From the NCBI GenBank assembly GCA_964432455.1, contig CAYSNO010000003.1:1-37197 (forward strand): a stretch of 37,197 bases of DNA, in the 5' to 3' direction. The notes under the pieces were generated by a model, which did not search any database, was not told the DNA's origin, and saw only the letters and a program-made list of their open reading frames with translations. Position numbers and translations under genes: made by a program. This document shows positions 8,566-24,987 of the stretch, in pieces (the first letter of the stretch is position 1; each line of letters starts with the position of its first letter). The stretch is from an uncultured Candidatus Saccharibacteria bacterium. Lineage in GTDB: Bacteria > Patescibacteriota > Minisyncoccia > Phycocordibacterales > UBA918.

Positions 8566-9740
8566 CTGACCGGGAATGATTCGGTGACCGCAAGGAGCTC
8601 GGCAGATTCGTTCGTCCGAATAACTACTCCTAATACAGCTGAATCCTGACTCGAGATAATGCCATCGCGACCGATGGTCATTTCGTTGCGATCTTCGTCA
8701 AGATCAATACCAATAGATTCTAGACCACCAAGTAAAAGTGCCCGAAGCTGTGGGCTGCGTTCGGCGGCAGTGGCGGTCAGTACCACCGCATCAAGGCCGC
8801 CCAAGGCAACGAGGTACGAACCGAGAGTCTTTTGGAAACGATAGACACACTGCTGGAAGGCAGCGACAACCGCCTCGTCCCCTAGTTCCAGCCGCGCCAG
8901 GAGGTGGCGGAAATCAGACTCACCAGTAAGGCCGACAAAGCCGCCACGAGTTTGGAGGTACGTGTGCATATCTAGCGGCTTCATGTGGTGAATGCGCATG
9001 AGTTCGAGCACGACTGCTGGTTCGATGTCACCAGTACGAGCCCCCATCATGAGTCCACTACCTGGCGCAAAGCCCATCGTCGTATCGATACTGATACCGT
9101 TTTTAAGTGCACACATACTCATACCGCTCCCGATATGGCAGACCACTACCCGCGTGGCAGTGGGCGGGAGCAGTGTTGGTAGCTGCTTGGCCAGCGATGC
9201 GTACGATAGTCCGTGGTAACCAAAGCGGTAGAGGTCATGGGTACGAATATCTTCTTGCTCAATCGCAAAAGTTCGTGCGTAGGCAGGGACCGTGCTATGG
9301 AAAGCGCTGTCTGAAACACCAACTACAACCGCGCTCGGGAGGAGGCGTAGTATCTCATCAAGTTCAGAGAGTGTATGGGGGATATGAAGGGGCGCGAGTA
9401 CGAGCGCCGTTTCGAGGCGATCGCGGTACGCGTGGTCAATCTGGCGATGGGTCGTAAAGTAGGTGCCAGGGGCCACAATTCGTAGACCAACTCGGGTGAT
9501 AGCTTCGGCGCTGGGTAAAATCTTTTCGCTAACTGCCGACGTAAGCACATACGATAGCGCCGAGGCATACTGGGTGCCCGTGATACCCGCACACAGTTGG
9601 CCCTGGCCATTATGCTCTCGGCAGACTTCGTACTGTTGTTCATTACGCTCAAAGCGGTAGGTAGCGACTGTCCGCCCAGCATCAATAAGCACGTATTTTT
9701 TTGAGGAAGAACCCGGATTAATAATTAACGTGAATGCCAT
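8562..9740 (-). CDS. ackA: acetate kinase
   Basis: LIINPGSSSKKY N-terminus, HIGSG and GF.PGSGLMMG.R.GD.. motifs. Overlaps the phosphoketolase gene by 16 nt. Confidence 0.92.
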   Translation of the reverse strand: MAFTLIINPGSSSKKYVLIDAGRTVATYRFERNEQQYEVCREHNGQGQLCAGITGTQYASALSYVLTSAVSEKILPSAEAITRVGLRIVAPGTYFTTHRQIDHAYRDRLETALVLAPLHIPHTLSELDEILRLLPSAVVVGVSDSAFHSTVPAYARTFAIEQEDIRTHDLYRFGYHGLSYASLAKQLPTLLPPTATRVVVCHIGSGMSMCALKNGISIDTTMGFAPGSGLMMGARTGDIEPAVVLELMRIHHMKPLDMHTYLQTRGGFVGLTGESDFRHLLARLELGDEAVVAAFQQCVYRFQKTLGSYLVALGGLDAVVLTATAAERSPQLRALLLGGLESIGIDLDEDRNEMTIGRDGIISSQDSAVLGVVIRTNESAELLAVTESFPVS

Positions 9741-18810: not shown

Positions 18811-20181
18811 TTAGAAGAGAATCTCGATTTCTTCGTTGGCATTTGGGGCTTTCGCATTTACTCCAAGGTAGTCGCGCAGGCGCTGGGTAAGGAAGAGGGA
18901 TGATCGTTCCTCCCCCATCACCACGTAGATGCCTTTGATATCTTCGGCCTTTTCTGCCCCTTGAGCCACGAGATTAATAAGCTGGTCGCGATCAGCGTGG
19001 CCGGAGAAGCCAGCGATACGAGCAATACTCGCCCGCACCTTCACTGACTTGCCATCGATAGTCACCTTCTTCGCACCATCTTGGAGAATACGACCAAGGC
19101 TCCCGGCGGCCTGGTAGCCGACGAGGAGTACGGTGGTCTTCGTGTCATCAAGGTAGTTTTGCTCGTGGCGCTGGATGCGACCACCGTGACTCATGCCTGA
19201 TCCCGCAATGATAATCTTCGCACCTTTTTCTTCATCAATCTCATGTGATTCTTTGACTGTCCGCGTAAACGAAAGGCCCGAGAAATCAAAGATATCATCT
19301 CCTCCCTTGATTTGGGCCTGGATCTCAGGCGAGAGATACTCACGGTAGCGACGATAGATATCCGTCACACTGATAGCGAGCGGTGAATCAAGGAAGACTG
19401 GCAGTGGTTTCATCGCACCACTTTCGACGAGGTTATTAATCTCAAGGAGCATCCCTTGGGTACGTTCAAGGGAGAAGGCCGGGATGATGAGTGTGCCACC
19501 CTTCTGTCTCGTTTCTTCAATATAGTGCTGCAACAGTGCGGTACGCTCTTTGACTTGCTCGTGGAGTCGATCACCATAGACACTCTCCATGACGAGGTAA
19601 TCATAGCCGGTCGGAGGGACTGGCGGGGCCAACAGTGGCTGCGGTACATTACCGATATCCCCAGTAAAGACAATCTTTTGACCACCACGTTCAAGATGCA
19701 CCATACCCGAGCCAAGGATGTGGCCTGCGTCCGTATAATGGGCAGTGACATCGTCTGGAAGACTAAAGCGTTCGTCGTACCCAACGGTCTTCCAGAGAGA
19801 CAGGGCATGGTCGATATCACCTACTTCGTAGAGGACCTCGTAGCCGTAGCGTTCGTGCTCGTACTCCATGACCTTAAGGGCGTCGCGTAACATGATGTTT
19901 GCGAGGTCTTTGGTCGGATGAGTCGAGTAAATAGTACCAGCAAAACCGTCTTTCACGAGCTTCGGGATACGACCAATATGGTCGGCATGCGCGTGGGTCA
20001 CGAGAAGGACGTCTACGTCAGCGGGGTTGTAGACAAACGGCACCGCATTTTGCTCCGCGGCAAAACGATCGCCCTGCACAAGCCCACAGTCGACAAGGAA
20101 TGCCGCATTACCCGTATCAAGCATAAAGTTCGCCCCTGTGACACTCCCTACTCCACCATAAAATCCTAACGTGCTTTTCAT
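18811..20181 (-). CDS. MBL-fold beta-CASP family ribonuclease/hydrolase
   Basis: LVTHAHADHIGRIP (HxHxDH) plus a beta-CASP-type C-terminal half. Start set at MKSTLGFYGG (20181); the track start at 20208 would overlap the upstream gene. Confidence 0.88.
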   Translation of the reverse strand: MKSTLGFYGGVGSVTGANFMLDTGNAAFLVDCGLVQGDRFAAEQNAVPFVYNPADVDVLLVTHAHADHIGRIPKLVKDGFAGTIYSTHPTKDLANIMLRDALKVMEYEHERYGYEVLYEVGDIDHALSLWKTVGYDERFSLPDDVTAHYTDAGHILGSGMVHLERGGQKIVFTGDIGNVPQPLLAPPVPPTGYDYLVMESVYGDRLHEQVKERTALLQHYIEETRQKGGTLIIPAFSLERTQGMLLEINNLVESGAMKPLPVFLDSPLAISVTDIYRRYREYLSPEIQAQIKGGDDIFDFSGLSFTRTVKESHEIDEEKGAKIIIAGSGMSHGGRIQRHEQNYLDDTKTTVLLVGYQAAGSLGRILQDGAKKVTIDGKSVKVRASIARIAGFSGHADRDQLINLVAQGAEKAEDIKGIYVVMGEERSSLFLTQRLRDYLGVNAKAPNANEEIEILF

Positions 20182-20194
20182 GTAAATATTCTTA

Positions 20195-20596
20195 TTAACG
20201 ATGCTCATCCTTCGGGCGTGTCAGTCGCATAAACTCGGTCATTGTGCGCACGAGCATGTAACCGGTCACAATACCGGTAATACCACAAACGAGGTCACCC
20301 AAGGTATCTGGCCAAAAATCGGGCTTCAGTCCCCCATAGCGTAAGATACCAAAGACTTCCCAGCCAATGAGCGCGGCACTAAAGCCTATGGCTGAAACGT
20401 ATGGCGGCAGTCGCTTCAAAGCGGGTGACATCTGACGGAGACTCGCGAACATAAACATGAGTACGATACCGCCGAGGATATGCATCGGCATATCAAGCCA
20501 TTCGTAGTGCCAGTAGAGCGATAGGGCTTCAGCGAGGGTGTGTAAAACGGCAAAGGTGACGCCGAAGATAATCGTAACTGCGTAGATCATTATCAA
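20195..20596 (-). CDS. 4-TM membrane protein, family not recognised
   Basis: 133-aa hydrophobic ORF, with TATAGT 5 nt upstream of the ATG. Confidence 0.65.
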   Translation of the reverse strand: MIMIYAVTIIFGVTFAVLHTLAEALSLYWHYEWLDMPMHILGGIVLMFMFASLRQMSPALKRLPPYVSAIGFSAALIGWEVFGILRYGGLKPDFWPDTLGDLVCGITGIVTGYMLVRTMTEFMRLTRPKDEHR

Positions 20597-20639
20597 CTAT
20601 AGTAGCATAACGCAACGAGAGTAATAAAATTCAACAACA

Positions 20640-20818
20640 AAAAAGGCCTTCTCGTGGAAGGTCTTTTTTGTGGGAACGACAGACGCATGCTCCTAGACTA
20701 AGTCCAGGTGGGCACCCTTTCCGATTCGTGTCTGAAATTTCTTGCGAATTCTCATTACTCCTCGCGACTACAGGCAGCCCTGCGTGTTAATTAACCGGAA
20801 CATACGTGATGTCGTTCC
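20640..20818 (-). ncRNA. candidate structured ncRNA (about 180 nt) of unknown class
   Basis: Bounded by its own TGGTATACT promoter and a hairpin+T6 terminator (20645-20669). The 5' GGAACGACA..ACGUAUG pairs with the 3' CAUGCGU.UGUCGUUCC (9+7 bp closing helix). No credible ORF. Confidence 0.5.
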
Positions 20819-20824
20819 TAGTAC

Positions 20825-20833
20825 AGTATACCA
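20825..20833 (-). promoter_or_regulatory. extended -10 promoter TGGTATACT for the candidate ncRNA
   Basis: The minus strand reads ctttTTGGTATACTgtactagGAACGAC, directly after the ndk terminator. Confidence 0.55.
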
Positions 20834-20900: not shown

Positions 20901-21503
20901 CTATTCGTTCTTACCATCCATATCGATGTCGTACATGATGCGTTCCTGTGCAGTGATGTACTTCATGATATCACTTTCAGTAAACCAAAGTGCGATTTCA
21001 CGTTCAGCTTCTTCAGGTGATTCTGAACAGTGAATGAGGTTGCGAACGGCACGATTTTCGTATGATGAGTGACTATATGAGTCCACAGTGAAGTCACCAC
21101 GAATTGTTCCTACGTCTGATGTCTTTGGTTCAGTGGTGCCCACGAGCTTTGTCACCACAGCAACAGCTTCATTACCTTCCCACACCATCGCAACGACTGG
21201 AGCAGCTTCCATGTAGTGCACAATGGTACGAATGATATCCTTACCATATTCAAGTGCCTCCTTTTCCACTGGGCGACCCTGACTTTGCAAGTCTTCAATA
21301 ATACGTGTCCCTTTCTTGAGGAACCAGGCATCATCTTTGTTGTAGTGTGCGAGCAAACGAGCTTCGTCAGCCATAAACATCTTCATGGCGGTGCACTTGA
21401 GGCCTGTGCGTTCAAAGCGCTTGATAACCTCGCCAATGAGTGAGCGCTGGACAGTGTCGGGCTTTAAAATAACAAAGGTGCGTTCTTGGTGTGGGTGCTT
21501 CAT
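20901..21503 (-). CDS. ndk: nucleoside diphosphate kinase, long form (200 aa)
   Basis: ERTFVILKPD.VQR.LIGEVI.RFE..GL ... NLIHCSES. Carries an internal insertion and a C-terminal extension relative to Ndk proteins of about 140 aa. Confidence 0.9.
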   Translation of the reverse strand: MKHPHQERTFVILKPDTVQRSLIGEVIKRFERTGLKCTAMKMFMADEARLLAHYNKDDAWFLKKGTRIIEDLQSQGRPVEKEALEYGKDIIRTIVHYMEAAPVVAMVWEGNEAVAVVTKLVGTTEPKTSDVGTIRGDFTVDSYSHSSYENRAVRNLIHCSESPEEAEREIALWFTESDIMKYITAQERIMYDIDMDGKNE

Positions 21504-21533
21504 GGTAAAAATAAGTTACAAAATAACGCCAGA

Positions 21534-21542
21534 ACTATACCA
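21534..21542 (-). promoter_or_regulatory. extended -10 promoter TGGTATAGT upstream of ndk (leader of about 31 nt, no SD)
   Basis: The minus strand reads acaaTGGTATAGTtctggcg. Confidence 0.5.
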
Positions 21543-21553
21543 TTGTACGGCAT

Positions 21554-21679
21554 AAAAGAAAAGACCTCCGAGGCGCGAGCAGACGCGCCTCGGAGGCAAG
21601 CAGCAGCCCTTGCGGGCTGGCGTGTGCGATCGCAGGGCAGCGACCGCGGGCAGTGTCTATCACCGAAGTGACGGACGCT
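21554..21679 (-). ncRNA. candidate GC-rich structured sRNA (about 125 nt)
   Basis: Has its own TGGTATACT promoter. Hairpins: GUCAC-UUCG-GUGAU, GCGGUCGC-UGCCCU-GCGAUCGC, CAGCCC-GCAA-GGGCUG. Ends in a 13-bp terminator (21565-21596) plus a T-run. Confidence 0.5.
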
Positions 21680-21685
21680 ACCACT

Positions 21686-21694
21686 AGTATACCA
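21686..21694 (-). promoter_or_regulatory. extended -10 promoter TGGTATACT
   Basis: The minus strand reads aaattgTGGTATACTagtgg. The 14-mer TGGTATACTAGTGG is identical to 36921-36934. Confidence 0.55.
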
Positions 21695-21702
21695 CAATTT
21701 AT

Positions 21703-21798
21703 AAAAGAAAAAAGGCCGAGCTCCAGGGGGATGAAGCTCGGCCAGGTCCAACAGGGAGGATGCCGCGCCATAACCCCGACACGACGAGGGGAATCACT
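21703..21798 (-). ncRNA. candidate sRNA (about 95 nt)
   Basis: Lies between the TTGACA-17-TACACT promoter and a 9-bp hairpin (21714-21743) plus T-run. Contains a CCCC-UCGUCGUGUC-GGGG hairpin. No stop codon occurs before the terminator. Confidence 0.45.
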
Positions 21799-21804
21799 AC
21801 ATTC

Positions 21805-21833
21805 AGTGTATGCCTCACCACACAAGCTGTCAA
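21805..21833 (-). promoter_or_regulatory. sigma70-type promoter TTGACA-17-TACACT
   Basis: The minus strand reads ttTTGACAgcttgtgtggtgaggcaTACACTgaatg. Confidence 0.6.
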
Positions 21834-21907
21834 AATAAATCTGGGATAAGCGTACATCCCCCAATCGATTAGGGTATTGTCAACGGACAGCTCCTAAAAT
21901 GAGACAC

Positions 21908-21954
21908 AAGAAAAGGCCGCCGAAAGTAAGGTGGTGACCTTTCCCTCGGCGGCC
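21908..21954 (-). terminator. long imperfect hairpin plus T-run downstream of the 205-aa gene
   Basis: The minus strand reads ggccgccga..(aaggt-cacc-acctt)..tcggcggcc followed by ttttcttgtg. Confidence 0.55.
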
Positions 21955-22073
21955 CGGTTTGGTGCCGCCAGCGCTTACGCGCGACGTCGAGCGGATGCAT
22001 CTGCATAGCTCGTCCTCCTTCTTTGTTCAAGTTGCCTTCCCCGCGCCGGTTCATTCCGCCGCGGGGTCTCTCA

Positions 22074-22691
22074 TCAGTAGTCGTAGTCGCCGTAGTCCGG
22101 CAGCTCGCTGTTAGCGCGAATCTCGTCCTCAAGCGCCTGTTGGGAACCTTCGTAGTCGTCCCAGTAGTCAGCTTCGGACGATTCATCGTCAGTGACAGCC
22201 TGGTTCAGAGACGATTCAGAACCAAAGTCCCTACGATGATCGACCTCACGGATCAGCTCCGCGAAGACGAGCCTCGTCTTCGGAGCCATGGTAGTGGGAC
22301 GAACCCAATACCACCCACCCTCCACCAGCCATTCAAACCGACGCGGGATATTCACCACAATCTTGATGTGATCGAGGTGATCGCCCTTGTGGTAGAGACG
22401 ATACTGCCCATGCCACTGCAGTCGACCTTTCCACTGATCGCAGAAGAGACGGAGCGGCAACTGCGAGACTCGCATCTGCGCCGGCAGCTCGGTATAGAGG
22501 ACCGGCTGACGCGGCGATTCAACCGGACGAATCGTCTCGGGGTGAACCAACTTCGTCCAGCGGTCACTGTCGACAATCTTCTTCTGCCGCGGACCCTTCG
22601 GGCGACGCGGCGATTCGGCCTCCTTTGACGCCTTATTCAGGTGTGCGACGAGGTCGGTGAAAGATTTCAGTCCATTGTTGTCCGTTCCCAT
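22074..22691 (-). CDS. hypothetical protein (205 aa) with a strongly acidic, Tyr/Trp-studded C-terminal tail
   Basis: SD GAAGGAG lies 8 nt before ATG 22691. Higher G+C. The tail is DDESSEADYWDDYEGSQQALEDEIRANSELPDYGDYDY*. No family recognised. Confidence 0.7.
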   Translation of the reverse strand: MGTDNNGLKSFTDLVAHLNKASKEAESPRRPKGPRQKKIVDSDRWTKLVHPETIRPVESPRQPVLYTELPAQMRVSQLPLRLFCDQWKGRLQWHGQYRLYHKGDHLDHIKIVVNIPRRFEWLVEGGWYWVRPTTMAPKTRLVFAELIREVDHRRDFGSESSLNQAVTDDESSEADYWDDYEGSQQALEDEIRANSELPDYGDYDY

Positions 22692-24414: not shown

Positions 24415-24987
24415 TTACCCCTTGAGCACATTAAAAATGTGCTCCCGGACTACCTCTGGTGATTGTGTACCGTCTATATCAATCAGCGTACCTTGTGAGC
24501 GAAAAAACTCAATCGATTTGGCGGTGTAGGTACGATACTCTTCGAGTCGCTTATCAACCGACTTTGGTGAGTCGACGATATCGCGAGCACGCTTTTCACT
24601 CCGTTCATGTACTTGTTCATCACTAATATCGAGGTTGAAGACTATGTAGGGACGATTTACCCATTCGTGAATCTCATGAAATAACTCTGCTTCGTCTGGC
24701 TTTTTAGCGACAGCTTCAAATATCACTCGGTCTTTTTCATATTGTGAGACCAAAGCATGGGTCATCCAGTATGAAGCAATCCATTCTGGGATAAGGCGAC
24801 CACTCTCGTACATCTCTTTCATTTTTTGACCAAACACGGTTGGTTGTGCAGCGGTCTCACGCACTTTATTACCGTTTGAGTATAGCGTGCCACCAAAGTT
24901 TTCTAAAATGTAGTGGGCCTGCGTACCCTTGCCTGAACAGATTTTACCCATTAAGACGATGCTCTGATATTTGGTCTCGTATTGCAT
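24415..24987 (-). CDS. second adenylate-kinase-family NMP kinase paralog
   Basis: LMGKICSGKGTQA P-loop and overall AK-like layout (190 aa), in tandem with adk. Confidence 0.8.
   Translation of the reverse strand: MQYETKYQSIVLMGKICSGKGTQAHYILENFGGTLYSNGNKVRETAAQPTVFGQKMKEMYESGRLIPEWIASYWMTHALVSQYEKDRVIFEAVAKKPDEAELFHEIHEWVNRPYIVFNLDISDEQVHERSEKRARDIVDSPKSVDKRLEEYRTYTAKSIEFFRSQGTLIDIDGTQSPEVVREHIFNVLKG

Follow-up and report, generated by a model that had tools for sequence, protein, structure and literature searches.

The stretch of DNA examined here (37,197 nt of contig CAYSNO010000003.1, hereafter the window) encodes SecY, adenylate kinase, methionine aminopeptidase, a 200-aa Ndk, a beta-CASP ribonuclease, phosphoketolase, and acetate kinase. 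The locus that concerns us, which besides secY, adk, and map has infC, rplT, and rpmI as further neighbors, is a 570-nt noncoding stretch on the minus strand between a 247-aa open reading frame (ORF; 22817-22074) and ndk (21503-20901). Within it lie 245 bases that had been flagged, from the sequence alone, as two tandem small RNAs (sRNAs) on the minus strand, each with its own promoter and intrinsic terminator. The nearest Ndk proteins, at up to 93% identity, come from metagenome-assembled genomes (MAGs) labelled Candidatus Paceibacteria, Pacebacteria, Parcubacteria, Kaiserbacteria, or Patescibacteria, and DNA of the window recurs in activated-sludge, wastewater, and bioreactor metagenomes. 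The host contig is that of a Paceibacteria-type bacterium of activated sludge, a member of the Patescibacteria or candidate phyla radiation (CPR). Our analysis supports two independent tandem sRNA genes as the best reading of the flagged region. Unit 2, the first in the direction of transcription, belongs to the SorX family; Unit 1 follows it and is a structured RNA. Their parts are as follows.

21805..21833, minus: Unit 2 promoter, sigma-70 type, with TTGACA (21833-21828), a 17-nt spacer, and TACACT (21810-21805); 10/12 consensus match
21703..21798, minus: Unit 2, SorX-family RNA, predicted primary transcript of ~96 nt; the Rfam match spans 21791-21708
21762..21791, minus: SorX 5' domain of Unit 2, with an 8-bp stem (21785-21778 with 21769-21762), loop GGGG (21777-21774), and upstream CCCC (21791-21788)
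21746..21759, minus: seed CCUCCCUGUUGGAC, single-stranded, with the anti-Shine-Dalgarno core CCUCC inside; identical to the SorX and SorY consensus
21703..21743, minus: intrinsic terminator of Unit 2, with a 12-bp stem (21743-21714), a 6-nt loop, and U-tract UUUUUUCUUUU
21686..21694, minus: extended -10 promoter of Unit 1, TGGTATACT, read from the sequence
21554..21684, minus: Unit 1, structured RNA of ~126-131 nt, three hairpins and a terminator
21682-21649, minus: Unit 1 hairpin 1, UUCG loop
21647-21626, minus: Unit 1 hairpin 2, UGCCCU loop
21622-21601, minus: Unit 1 hairpin 3, GCAA loop
21597-21564, minus: Unit 1 terminator, 14-pair stem, then a U-tract to 21554

The promoters and terminators that the original prediction had described are thus in place, and they are conserved, with covariation, in relatives. 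Unit 2 is predicted to start 7 nt after its own consensus promoter, which had been read correctly as TTGACA-17-TACACT. Both terminators consist of a hairpin and a T-run, as proposed, with stems longer than stated: 12 pairs and a 6-nt loop in Unit 2, for which 9 bp had been claimed, and 14 pairs instead of 13 in the GC-rich terminator of Unit 1. When each unit was compared with 200 dinucleotide shuffles of itself, the fold of Unit 1 (-70.1 kcal/mol, z = -6.3) was equalled by none and that of Unit 2 (-38.6 kcal/mol, z = -3.1) by two. Motif counts in the region (three promoter-like sites against 1.8 expected, seven terminator-like sites against 2.8 +/- 1.8) are weak evidence alone. The decisive support comes from conservation, both of a cassette identical in seven assemblies and of stems with compensatory changes in diverged relatives. 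For this comparison, regions around relatives of ndk were fetched from metagenomes and assemblies by synteny and not by seed; loci are referred to by their L numbers. The exact Ndk protein is present on 22 contigs from independent assemblies, and the intergenic cassette is base-for-base identical in all seven of the independent assemblies compared, which come from different studies. Across CPR relatives the same layout recurs: map (with or without an inserted ORF), a promoter TTTTGACAG..GGCATACACTGAAT, Unit 2, a TGGTATAGT-type promoter, a second sRNA slot, and the promoter and 5' untranslated region (UTR) of ndk. The promoter block of Unit 2 is kept in L011, L043, L212, L214, L218, and L221, and the Unit 1 promoter is kept as TATGGTATAGT in L011, L043, and L212. 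The terminator stems of Unit 2 vary among L011, L043, L214, and L009 with pairing maintained.

Open frames do run through the units (21535-21864, 21500-21751, and 21699-21857, all minus), and in principle they could encode small proteins. However, homologs differ by 1- and 2-nt indels, which break the frames and rule out coding for both units, and the substitutions found in stems are compensatory. The frames lack a Shine-Dalgarno (SD) sequence or a conserved start, and the one ORF with an ATG begins upstream of the promoter. We therefore give practically no credence to a coding function, in agreement with what had been proposed.

When the whole window was scanned against Rfam, a single match exceeded its gathering score: SorX (RF02784), at 21791-21708 on the minus strand, with 61.3 bits against a threshold of 46.6, E = 1e-12, and the full model (1-73) aligned. 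This known family had been missed by the original prediction, which was right to see no likeness to tRNA, signal recognition particle RNA, 6S RNA, RNase P, or transfer-messenger RNA (tmRNA): ARAGORN gives no tRNA or tmRNA in the window, and none of the five has an Rfam match at E <= 10 over 21400-22100. The SorX gathering score is also passed by CPR relatives L011 (68.6), L214 (61.7), L218 (49.6), and L009 (48.7). Unit 2 reads UUCCCCUCGUCGUGUCGGGGUUAUGGCGCGGCAU-CCUCCCUGUUGGAC-CUGGCCG, where the Tabrizicola RNA at L124 reads UUCCCCUUGUCGCGUCGGGGUUAUGGCGCGGCAU-CCUCCCUGUUGGAC-CUGGCCG. Over the 33-nt 5' domain, Unit 2 is 94% identical (31/33, loop and linker bases included) to the Tabrizicola SorX of L124 and L177, and it is equally close (94%) to that of MAG L125. 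SorX, the singlet-oxygen-resistance sRNA X of Rhodobacter/Cereibacter sphaeroides, is characterized by a GGG-looped 5' stem preceded by CCC, by the seed CCUCCCUGUUGGAC, and by a terminator with a U-tail, and all of these recur in Unit 2. Its 5' stem carries the loop GGGGUUAU together with the upstream CCCC, its seed CCUCCCUGUUGGA is exact over 14 nt (21759-21746) between the 5' domain and the terminator, and the terminator is Rho independent with a U-tail. In the minimum free energy fold most of the seed is unpaired, with only a 3-bp UCC/GGA helix closing it.

Much of this score derives from the seed and the terminator, which are common to SorX and SorY, and it could be argued that any anti-SD seed followed by a GGCC-rich terminator would score on the model by convergence or chance; CPR variants with other 5' domains do fall below the SorX gathering threshold. 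Yet the agreement with Tabrizicola SorX extends through the nonseed 5' domain, including loop and linker, and Unit 2 retains the covarying CCCC/GGGG pairing of the family. In addition, judging from the length of the window, an exact 14-mer would be expected only ~3e-4 times in DNA of this size. We regard convergence as highly improbable and, going by its sequence, Unit 2 is a true homolog of alphaproteobacterial SorX.

Within the family, the 5' tail and the loop covary without exception in the 31 parsable SorX sequences, with CCCC/GGGG in 16, CCCG/CGGG in 12, and a U-G pair in the other three. This pattern suggests a candidate H-type pseudoknot in the SorX 5' domain, and the loop lengths fit, while the two main forms follow clades and so represent few independent events. 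The Rfam structure line for SorX does not show this tail-loop pairing, which emerged from covariation over 21762-21791 of the window and loci L093-L218.

Two other groups of sRNAs resemble Unit 2 in part. SorY (RF02651) has the seed and terminator module in common with it, but Unit 2 scores only 32.4 bits on the SorY model against a gathering score of 111, with only the seed and the terminator aligning well. Moreover, the 5' hairpin of Unit 2 is of the SorX type, whereas SorY-like loci have one of the GAAG...CUUCAUA type. CcsR or "cuckoo"-type sRNAs of alphaproteobacteria carry CCUCCUCCC anti-SD loops. On this general background, C-rich anti-SD motifs are found on both sides, and some CPR variants of Unit 2 have a second C-rich loop in the 5' domain, such as UCUCCUCCCCCCU in L212 and AUCCUCCCUCCC in L226. 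Nevertheless, there is no sequence or model match between these sRNAs and Unit 2, whose seed is a linear single strand and not a hairpin loop.

In R. sphaeroides, SorX is located after an OmpR-family gene (PMC6238624, PMC9438474) and is produced from the 3' UTR of that ompR-type gene by RNase E, which converts a 116-nt precursor to 75 nt (PMC6238624). SorY has its own promoter (PMC6238624). Unlike canonical SorX, Unit 2 has a sigma-70-like promoter of its own and is free-standing between map and ndk, its upstream gene being an unassigned ORF or map and not an ompR-type gene, and its host belongs to the Patescibacteria and not to the Rhodobacterales. Given the canonical origin (PMC6238624), one might suspect that the mRNA of the upstream gene is the source of the units, either as its structured 3' UTR or as products processed from it. 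The expression data, which consist of low-depth assembled contigs (depth 3-9) from four wastewater metatranscriptomes, include contigs of run X25 that cover 21807-22060 as well, as such a precursor would. However, a strong separate terminator (~21945-21905) and the conserved consensus promoter stand between the upstream ORF and Unit 2. Furthermore, the upstream gene varies among relatives (map, or an inserted ORF of 205-247 aa) with the promoter and the sRNA unchanged. The region is therefore not simply an upstream 3' UTR, a point on which the original prediction holds, and an origin of the units in the upstream mRNA is very unlikely. The metatranscriptome contigs cover 21442-21809, in three of the four data sets they leave the Unit 2 promoter region (21794-21864) without coverage, and depth in run X25 peaks, among 30 bins over 20 kb, in the one with the sRNAs. 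This coverage is weak evidence, compatible with transcription starting at Unit 2.

Where did the SorX copy come from? In a scan for the seed followed by a terminator, run on one genome per species with the exact seed required, 119 of 120 among the matches listed carry Rhodobacterales or broader Pseudomonadota labels; nearly all of those listed belong to the Rhodobacterales (Rhodobacteraceae/Paracoccaceae), and a Limisphaerales MAG accounts for one. The 5' domain of Tabrizicola SorX is 52-85% identical to that of other Rhodobacterales genera and 94% identical to that of Unit 2, so the CPR copies nest inside one alphaproteobacterial sublineage. At Tabrizicola locus L124, SorX lies ~140 nt after an OmpR-family response-regulator gene, which confirms the canonical context there. 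Sludge and wastewater runs contain the Tabrizicola locus, and in two of the studies concerned the CPR contig is present too. Only ~75 nt, matching mature SorX, are shared between the window and the Tabrizicola loci, and the flanks are without likeness. Most likely, the ancestor of Unit 2 was acquired horizontally by the CPR lineage from a Tabrizicola-like member of the Rhodobacterales in a shared sludge habitat, a direction of transfer that we infer. Our literature search found no paper that places SorX outside Rhodobacter.

An apparent transfer could also be produced by assembly, if a Rhodobacterales fragment had been misjoined into a CPR contig or had contaminated it, and the G+C content of the units (~64-66%) does exceed the contig and window average (~50%). 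The junctions are nevertheless identical in at least seven assemblies made independently in different studies. Diverged CPR relatives, some of them represented by contigs of 185-478 kb, show this arrangement as well, complete with AT-rich promoters and T-tracts of the CPR type, and what the CPR contig and Rhodobacterales have in common is limited to the ~75 nt of mature SorX. The chance that a chimera or contamination explains the locus is minute. As for a vector, a phage was considered and rejected: one viral contig fits the seed-plus-terminator pattern, but this high-GC, prophage-like region next to a tRNA lacks a SorX 5' domain. This contig (L232, from IMG/VR; match at 8744-8765 beside a tRNA gene, in high-GC viral or prophage DNA) and L117, a 3.9-kb contig binned to Verrucomicrobiota (the Limisphaerales MAG) and possibly misbinned, are the only cases outside Rhodobacterales-type records among the matches listed, and both are without the SorX 5' domain. 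In five Rhodobacterales loci (L093, L111, L131, L182, and L191), a second sRNA-like unit with the same seed CCUCCCUGUUGGAC and its own terminator follows SorX by 115-170 nt, which means that tandem seed-sharing sRNAs occur in the donor group too.

The fate of Unit 2 within the CPR clade points to selection on the seed, and the evidence is unbiased because the homologs were located by synteny and not by seed. At least 13 CPR lineages have kept CCUCCCUGUUGGAC exactly or with one change (the latter in L014, L017, L216, and L230), always followed by a terminator. The 5' domain has been swapped for a different hairpin in L043, L212, L221, L226, L017, and L018, is partly deleted in L219 and L220, whose Ndk protein is that of L218, and is absent altogether in L230. 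Since several lineages have replaced or deleted this domain and kept the seed and terminator, the 5' domain, whether hairpin or pseudoknot, is dispensable. A further observation concerns L009, a strain whose Ndk protein is identical to that of the window but which carries a different Unit 2 terminator, GGCCGGGCGCAAAGCCCGGCC (L009:1-60 compared with 21703-21745 of the window), like that of L214 and Rhodobacterales SorX; this difference suggests recombination within the cassette.

Unit 1 is of another kind. The Rfam scan assigned it to no family. Close homologs occupy the same slot in L011/L211 and L043/L044, and the consensus folded from a three-sequence alignment has 44 pairs, of which 10 show compensatory changes. 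A covariance model built from this consensus (R1) found full-length matches in the same syntenic slot of L224 (E = 9e-8), L221/L222 (~3e-5), L216 (6e-5), and L012 (4e-4). Among the six syntenic members with three hairpins, 93% of cells pair and 29 of the 44 pairs have compensatory changes, a level that none of 500 shuffles reached and that compares with ~40% pairing in slid controls, for an alignment that was fitted to the model. The three hairpins with UUCG, UGCCCU, and GCAA loops, as originally drawn, thus stand on both fold energy and covariation. By contrast, the proposed GGUAGC/GCUUGCC closing helix, which would have made a four-way junction, was rejected, with 72% of cells pairing, no compensatory change, and an overlap with the terminator stem; the 5' GGUAG pairs instead with CUGCC and lengthens hairpin 1. 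With nhmmer and R1, Unit 1 was absent from 100 Rhodobacterales loci, where the best hit (E = 0.02) was noise found on both strands of GC-rich DNA, and because noise reached this level, R1 matches weaker than ~1e-3 (L228, L042, and L037) are not counted as members. On the comparative sequence evidence, Unit 1 is a CPR-specific structured sRNA whose predicted helices are kept by compensatory change while its sequence evolves quickly. With its own promoter, its UUCG and GNRA tetraloop hairpins, and its intrinsic terminator, it resembles generic promoter-bounded, Rho-independent sRNAs. It is unlike them in having no Rfam family, almost complete pairing, no obvious linear seed, a single syntenic CPR slot, and rapid divergence. 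A GCC(C)UG/CUGCC motif seems, by eye, to recur among the RNAs of this slot, but we make no claim for it.

The position of Unit 1 invites a different explanation, in which it would be a cis-acting leader of ndk (a riboswitch or attenuator) with its terminator as the expression platform and read-through controlling ndk. Unit 1 ends ~10 nt before the ndk promoter region in the same orientation, RNA contigs extend from it into ndk, and its 5' GGUAG has two possible partners, CUGCC behind hairpin 1 and GCUGCY behind hairpin 3, which in principle would allow a switch. But ndk has a strongly conserved extended -10 and 5' UTR of its own just downstream of Unit 1, and it is therefore independent of the Unit 1 promoter. 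Loci that share only 78-92% identity in their Ndk proteins have the same or almost the same 5' UTR, GCGTTATTTTGTAACTTATTTTTACC. Some relatives with a nearly constant ndk and UTR have unrelated sRNA-like sequences in the Unit 1 slot (L212, L214, L218, and L228) or leave it empty (L014 and L230); such turnover speaks against a leader or riboswitch and in favor of an independent sRNA that evolves fast. The type-A homologs of Unit 1 have structure in common with hardly any conserved unpaired bases, unlike an aptamer, and Unit 1 has no riboswitch or cis-regulatory match in Rfam. We consider a leader function unlikely.

How might the two RNAs work? Unit 2 would be transcribed from its sigma-70-type promoter and ended by its intrinsic terminator, at the predicted ends given above. 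Its unpaired C-rich seed CCUCCCUGUUGGAC could then pair with the ribosome-binding region of a target (5'-..CAACAGGGAGG..-3') and block translation initiation. There is precedent for this mode of action: SorY pairs through its seed region with the ribosome-binding region of takP in an Hfq-dependent manner (PMC4615379), and SorX, which is induced by oxidative stress, inhibits potA translation, again Hfq dependently (PMC9438474). Since the seed is under selection and SorY and SorX act in this way on takP and potA (PMC4615379, PMC9438474), Unit 2 may likewise repress translation and, by analogy, would work as they do. Unit 1 would act in trans, most likely through the hairpin-2 loop or by binding protein, and not as a cis element of ndk.

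Several findings weigh against this interpretation. Exact or 3-mismatch complements of the seed are no more common in the window than expected by chance, the sole exact one being the gene's own antisense. In ~0.5 Mb of CPR loci, k-mer searching revealed no convincing target at a ribosome-binding site, and against 55 start regions the predicted duplexes of the seed were no more stable than those formed by shuffled seeds. Nor was the SD-led short ORF just upstream of Unit 2 (22006-21869) a significant partner of the seed, and there was no potA-like target site in the window or in the 0.5 Mb of CPR loci. By crude longest-ORF calls, an SD-like motif is present in only 6 of 55 putative start regions of the window, an odd setting for an anti-SD regulator. 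Should the pattern hold, this lineage would make little use of SD sequences. A literature search on Hfq in Patescibacteria returned nothing relevant. The RNA contigs run across both terminators into ndk, as read-through or DNA carryover might produce. Unit 1 is nearly fully paired with almost no conserved unpaired nucleotides, and for this reason no seed can be named for it. Finally, the nesting of CPR SorX is based on ~33 nt, and the taxonomic distribution of SorX, drawn from the matches listed and an exact-seed requirement, is incomplete. Even so, we judge it probable that the map-ndk region holds two self-contained sRNA genes, a horizontally gained SorX (Unit 2) and a CPR-specific, trans-acting Unit 1.

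A more far-reaching idea is that the CPR bacterium lives as an episymbiont on Tabrizicola-like Rhodobacterales, and that the captured host sRNA acts on host transcripts, which would explain why its seed has stayed host-like, or serves as a decoy for host factors. RNA delivered into the host would shut down potA-type polyamine uptake or affect other SorX or SorY targets. The seed is strictly kept without a target in the CPR sequence examined, SD motifs seem rare, and the donor lineage shares the habitat, all of which are compatible with this idea; we still hold it to be distinctly unlikely. If it were true, SorX would regulate genes across species and would also mark the host at the molecular level.

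The surroundings of the two units contain further conserved elements.

21798-21703, 21684-21554, 21503-20901, minus: Unit 2 slot, then Unit 1 slot, then ndk; order read from the sequence
21542-21534, minus: extended -10 of ndk, TGGTATAGT, read from the sequence
21504-21542, minus: ndk promoter and 5' UTR, bounding the sRNA cassette, read from the sequence
21860..21873, no strand: palindrome CCnAATCGATTnGG, candidate operator for a dimeric regulator, ~40 nt upstream of the Unit 2 -35

The ndk 5' UTR (GCGUUAUUUUGUAACUUAUUUUUACC, 21504-21533, minus) has no SD sequence and is better conserved than Ndk itself, being unchanged where Ndk is 78% identical. The palindrome CCnAATCGATTnGG is kept in L011, L014, L212, L214, and L221 and is statistically unremarkable within the window alone; a second near-match to it lies at 24508-24521. 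A third conserved module upstream of Unit 2 (21869-22073, minus) comprises a GC hairpin and a strong GGAGG followed by an ATG (22006) and a putative ORF of 45 codons. The conserved "GPPR..FRRPFL" part of this ORF is encoded by a long terminator hairpin (GGCCGCCGA...UCGGCGGCC) that is also found after map in L216, L218-L220, and L224. Just downstream of ndk lies an RNA-like element of ~190 nt (20638-20826, minus) with its own promoter-like site TTTTTGGTATACT and its own terminator. It looks rod-like and 6S-like on account of a long closing helix that pairs 5' GGAACGACA with 3' UGUCGUUCC, and it is kept almost base-for-base in L212, L214, L218, L221, L226, L228, and L230. It has no Rfam match and is covered by the deepest metatranscriptome contig of run X26 (20439-20766, depth 12). 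Two genes downstream of the RNA cluster is a beta-CASP/metallo-beta-lactamase ribonuclease (RNase J-like, 465 aa; 18811-20208, minus), whose position is kept in all relatives.

Regulatory sRNAs of the CPR appear to be little studied, and our literature search found no paper on them. The locus described here provides well-supported sRNA genes of Paceibacteria, with comparative evidence. What is new is a known sRNA family, SorX, in an unexpected host and gene organization, along with a structured sRNA, Unit 1, that is supported by covariation. Unit 2 is a likely case of a trans-acting sRNA gene that has crossed phyla and has been rewired from a 3'-UTR product to a free-standing gene driven by its own promoter. 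Its history in the CPR amounts to a natural experiment on the parts of an sRNA, in which the seed and terminator were retained and the 5' domain proved dispensable. The match to Tabrizicola also offers a hint about the partners with which uncultured CPR bacteria exchange DNA, possibly their hosts. More generally, the region between map and ndk is an sRNA hot spot whose second slot turns over quickly, which makes it a tractable system for the origin and replacement of sRNAs.

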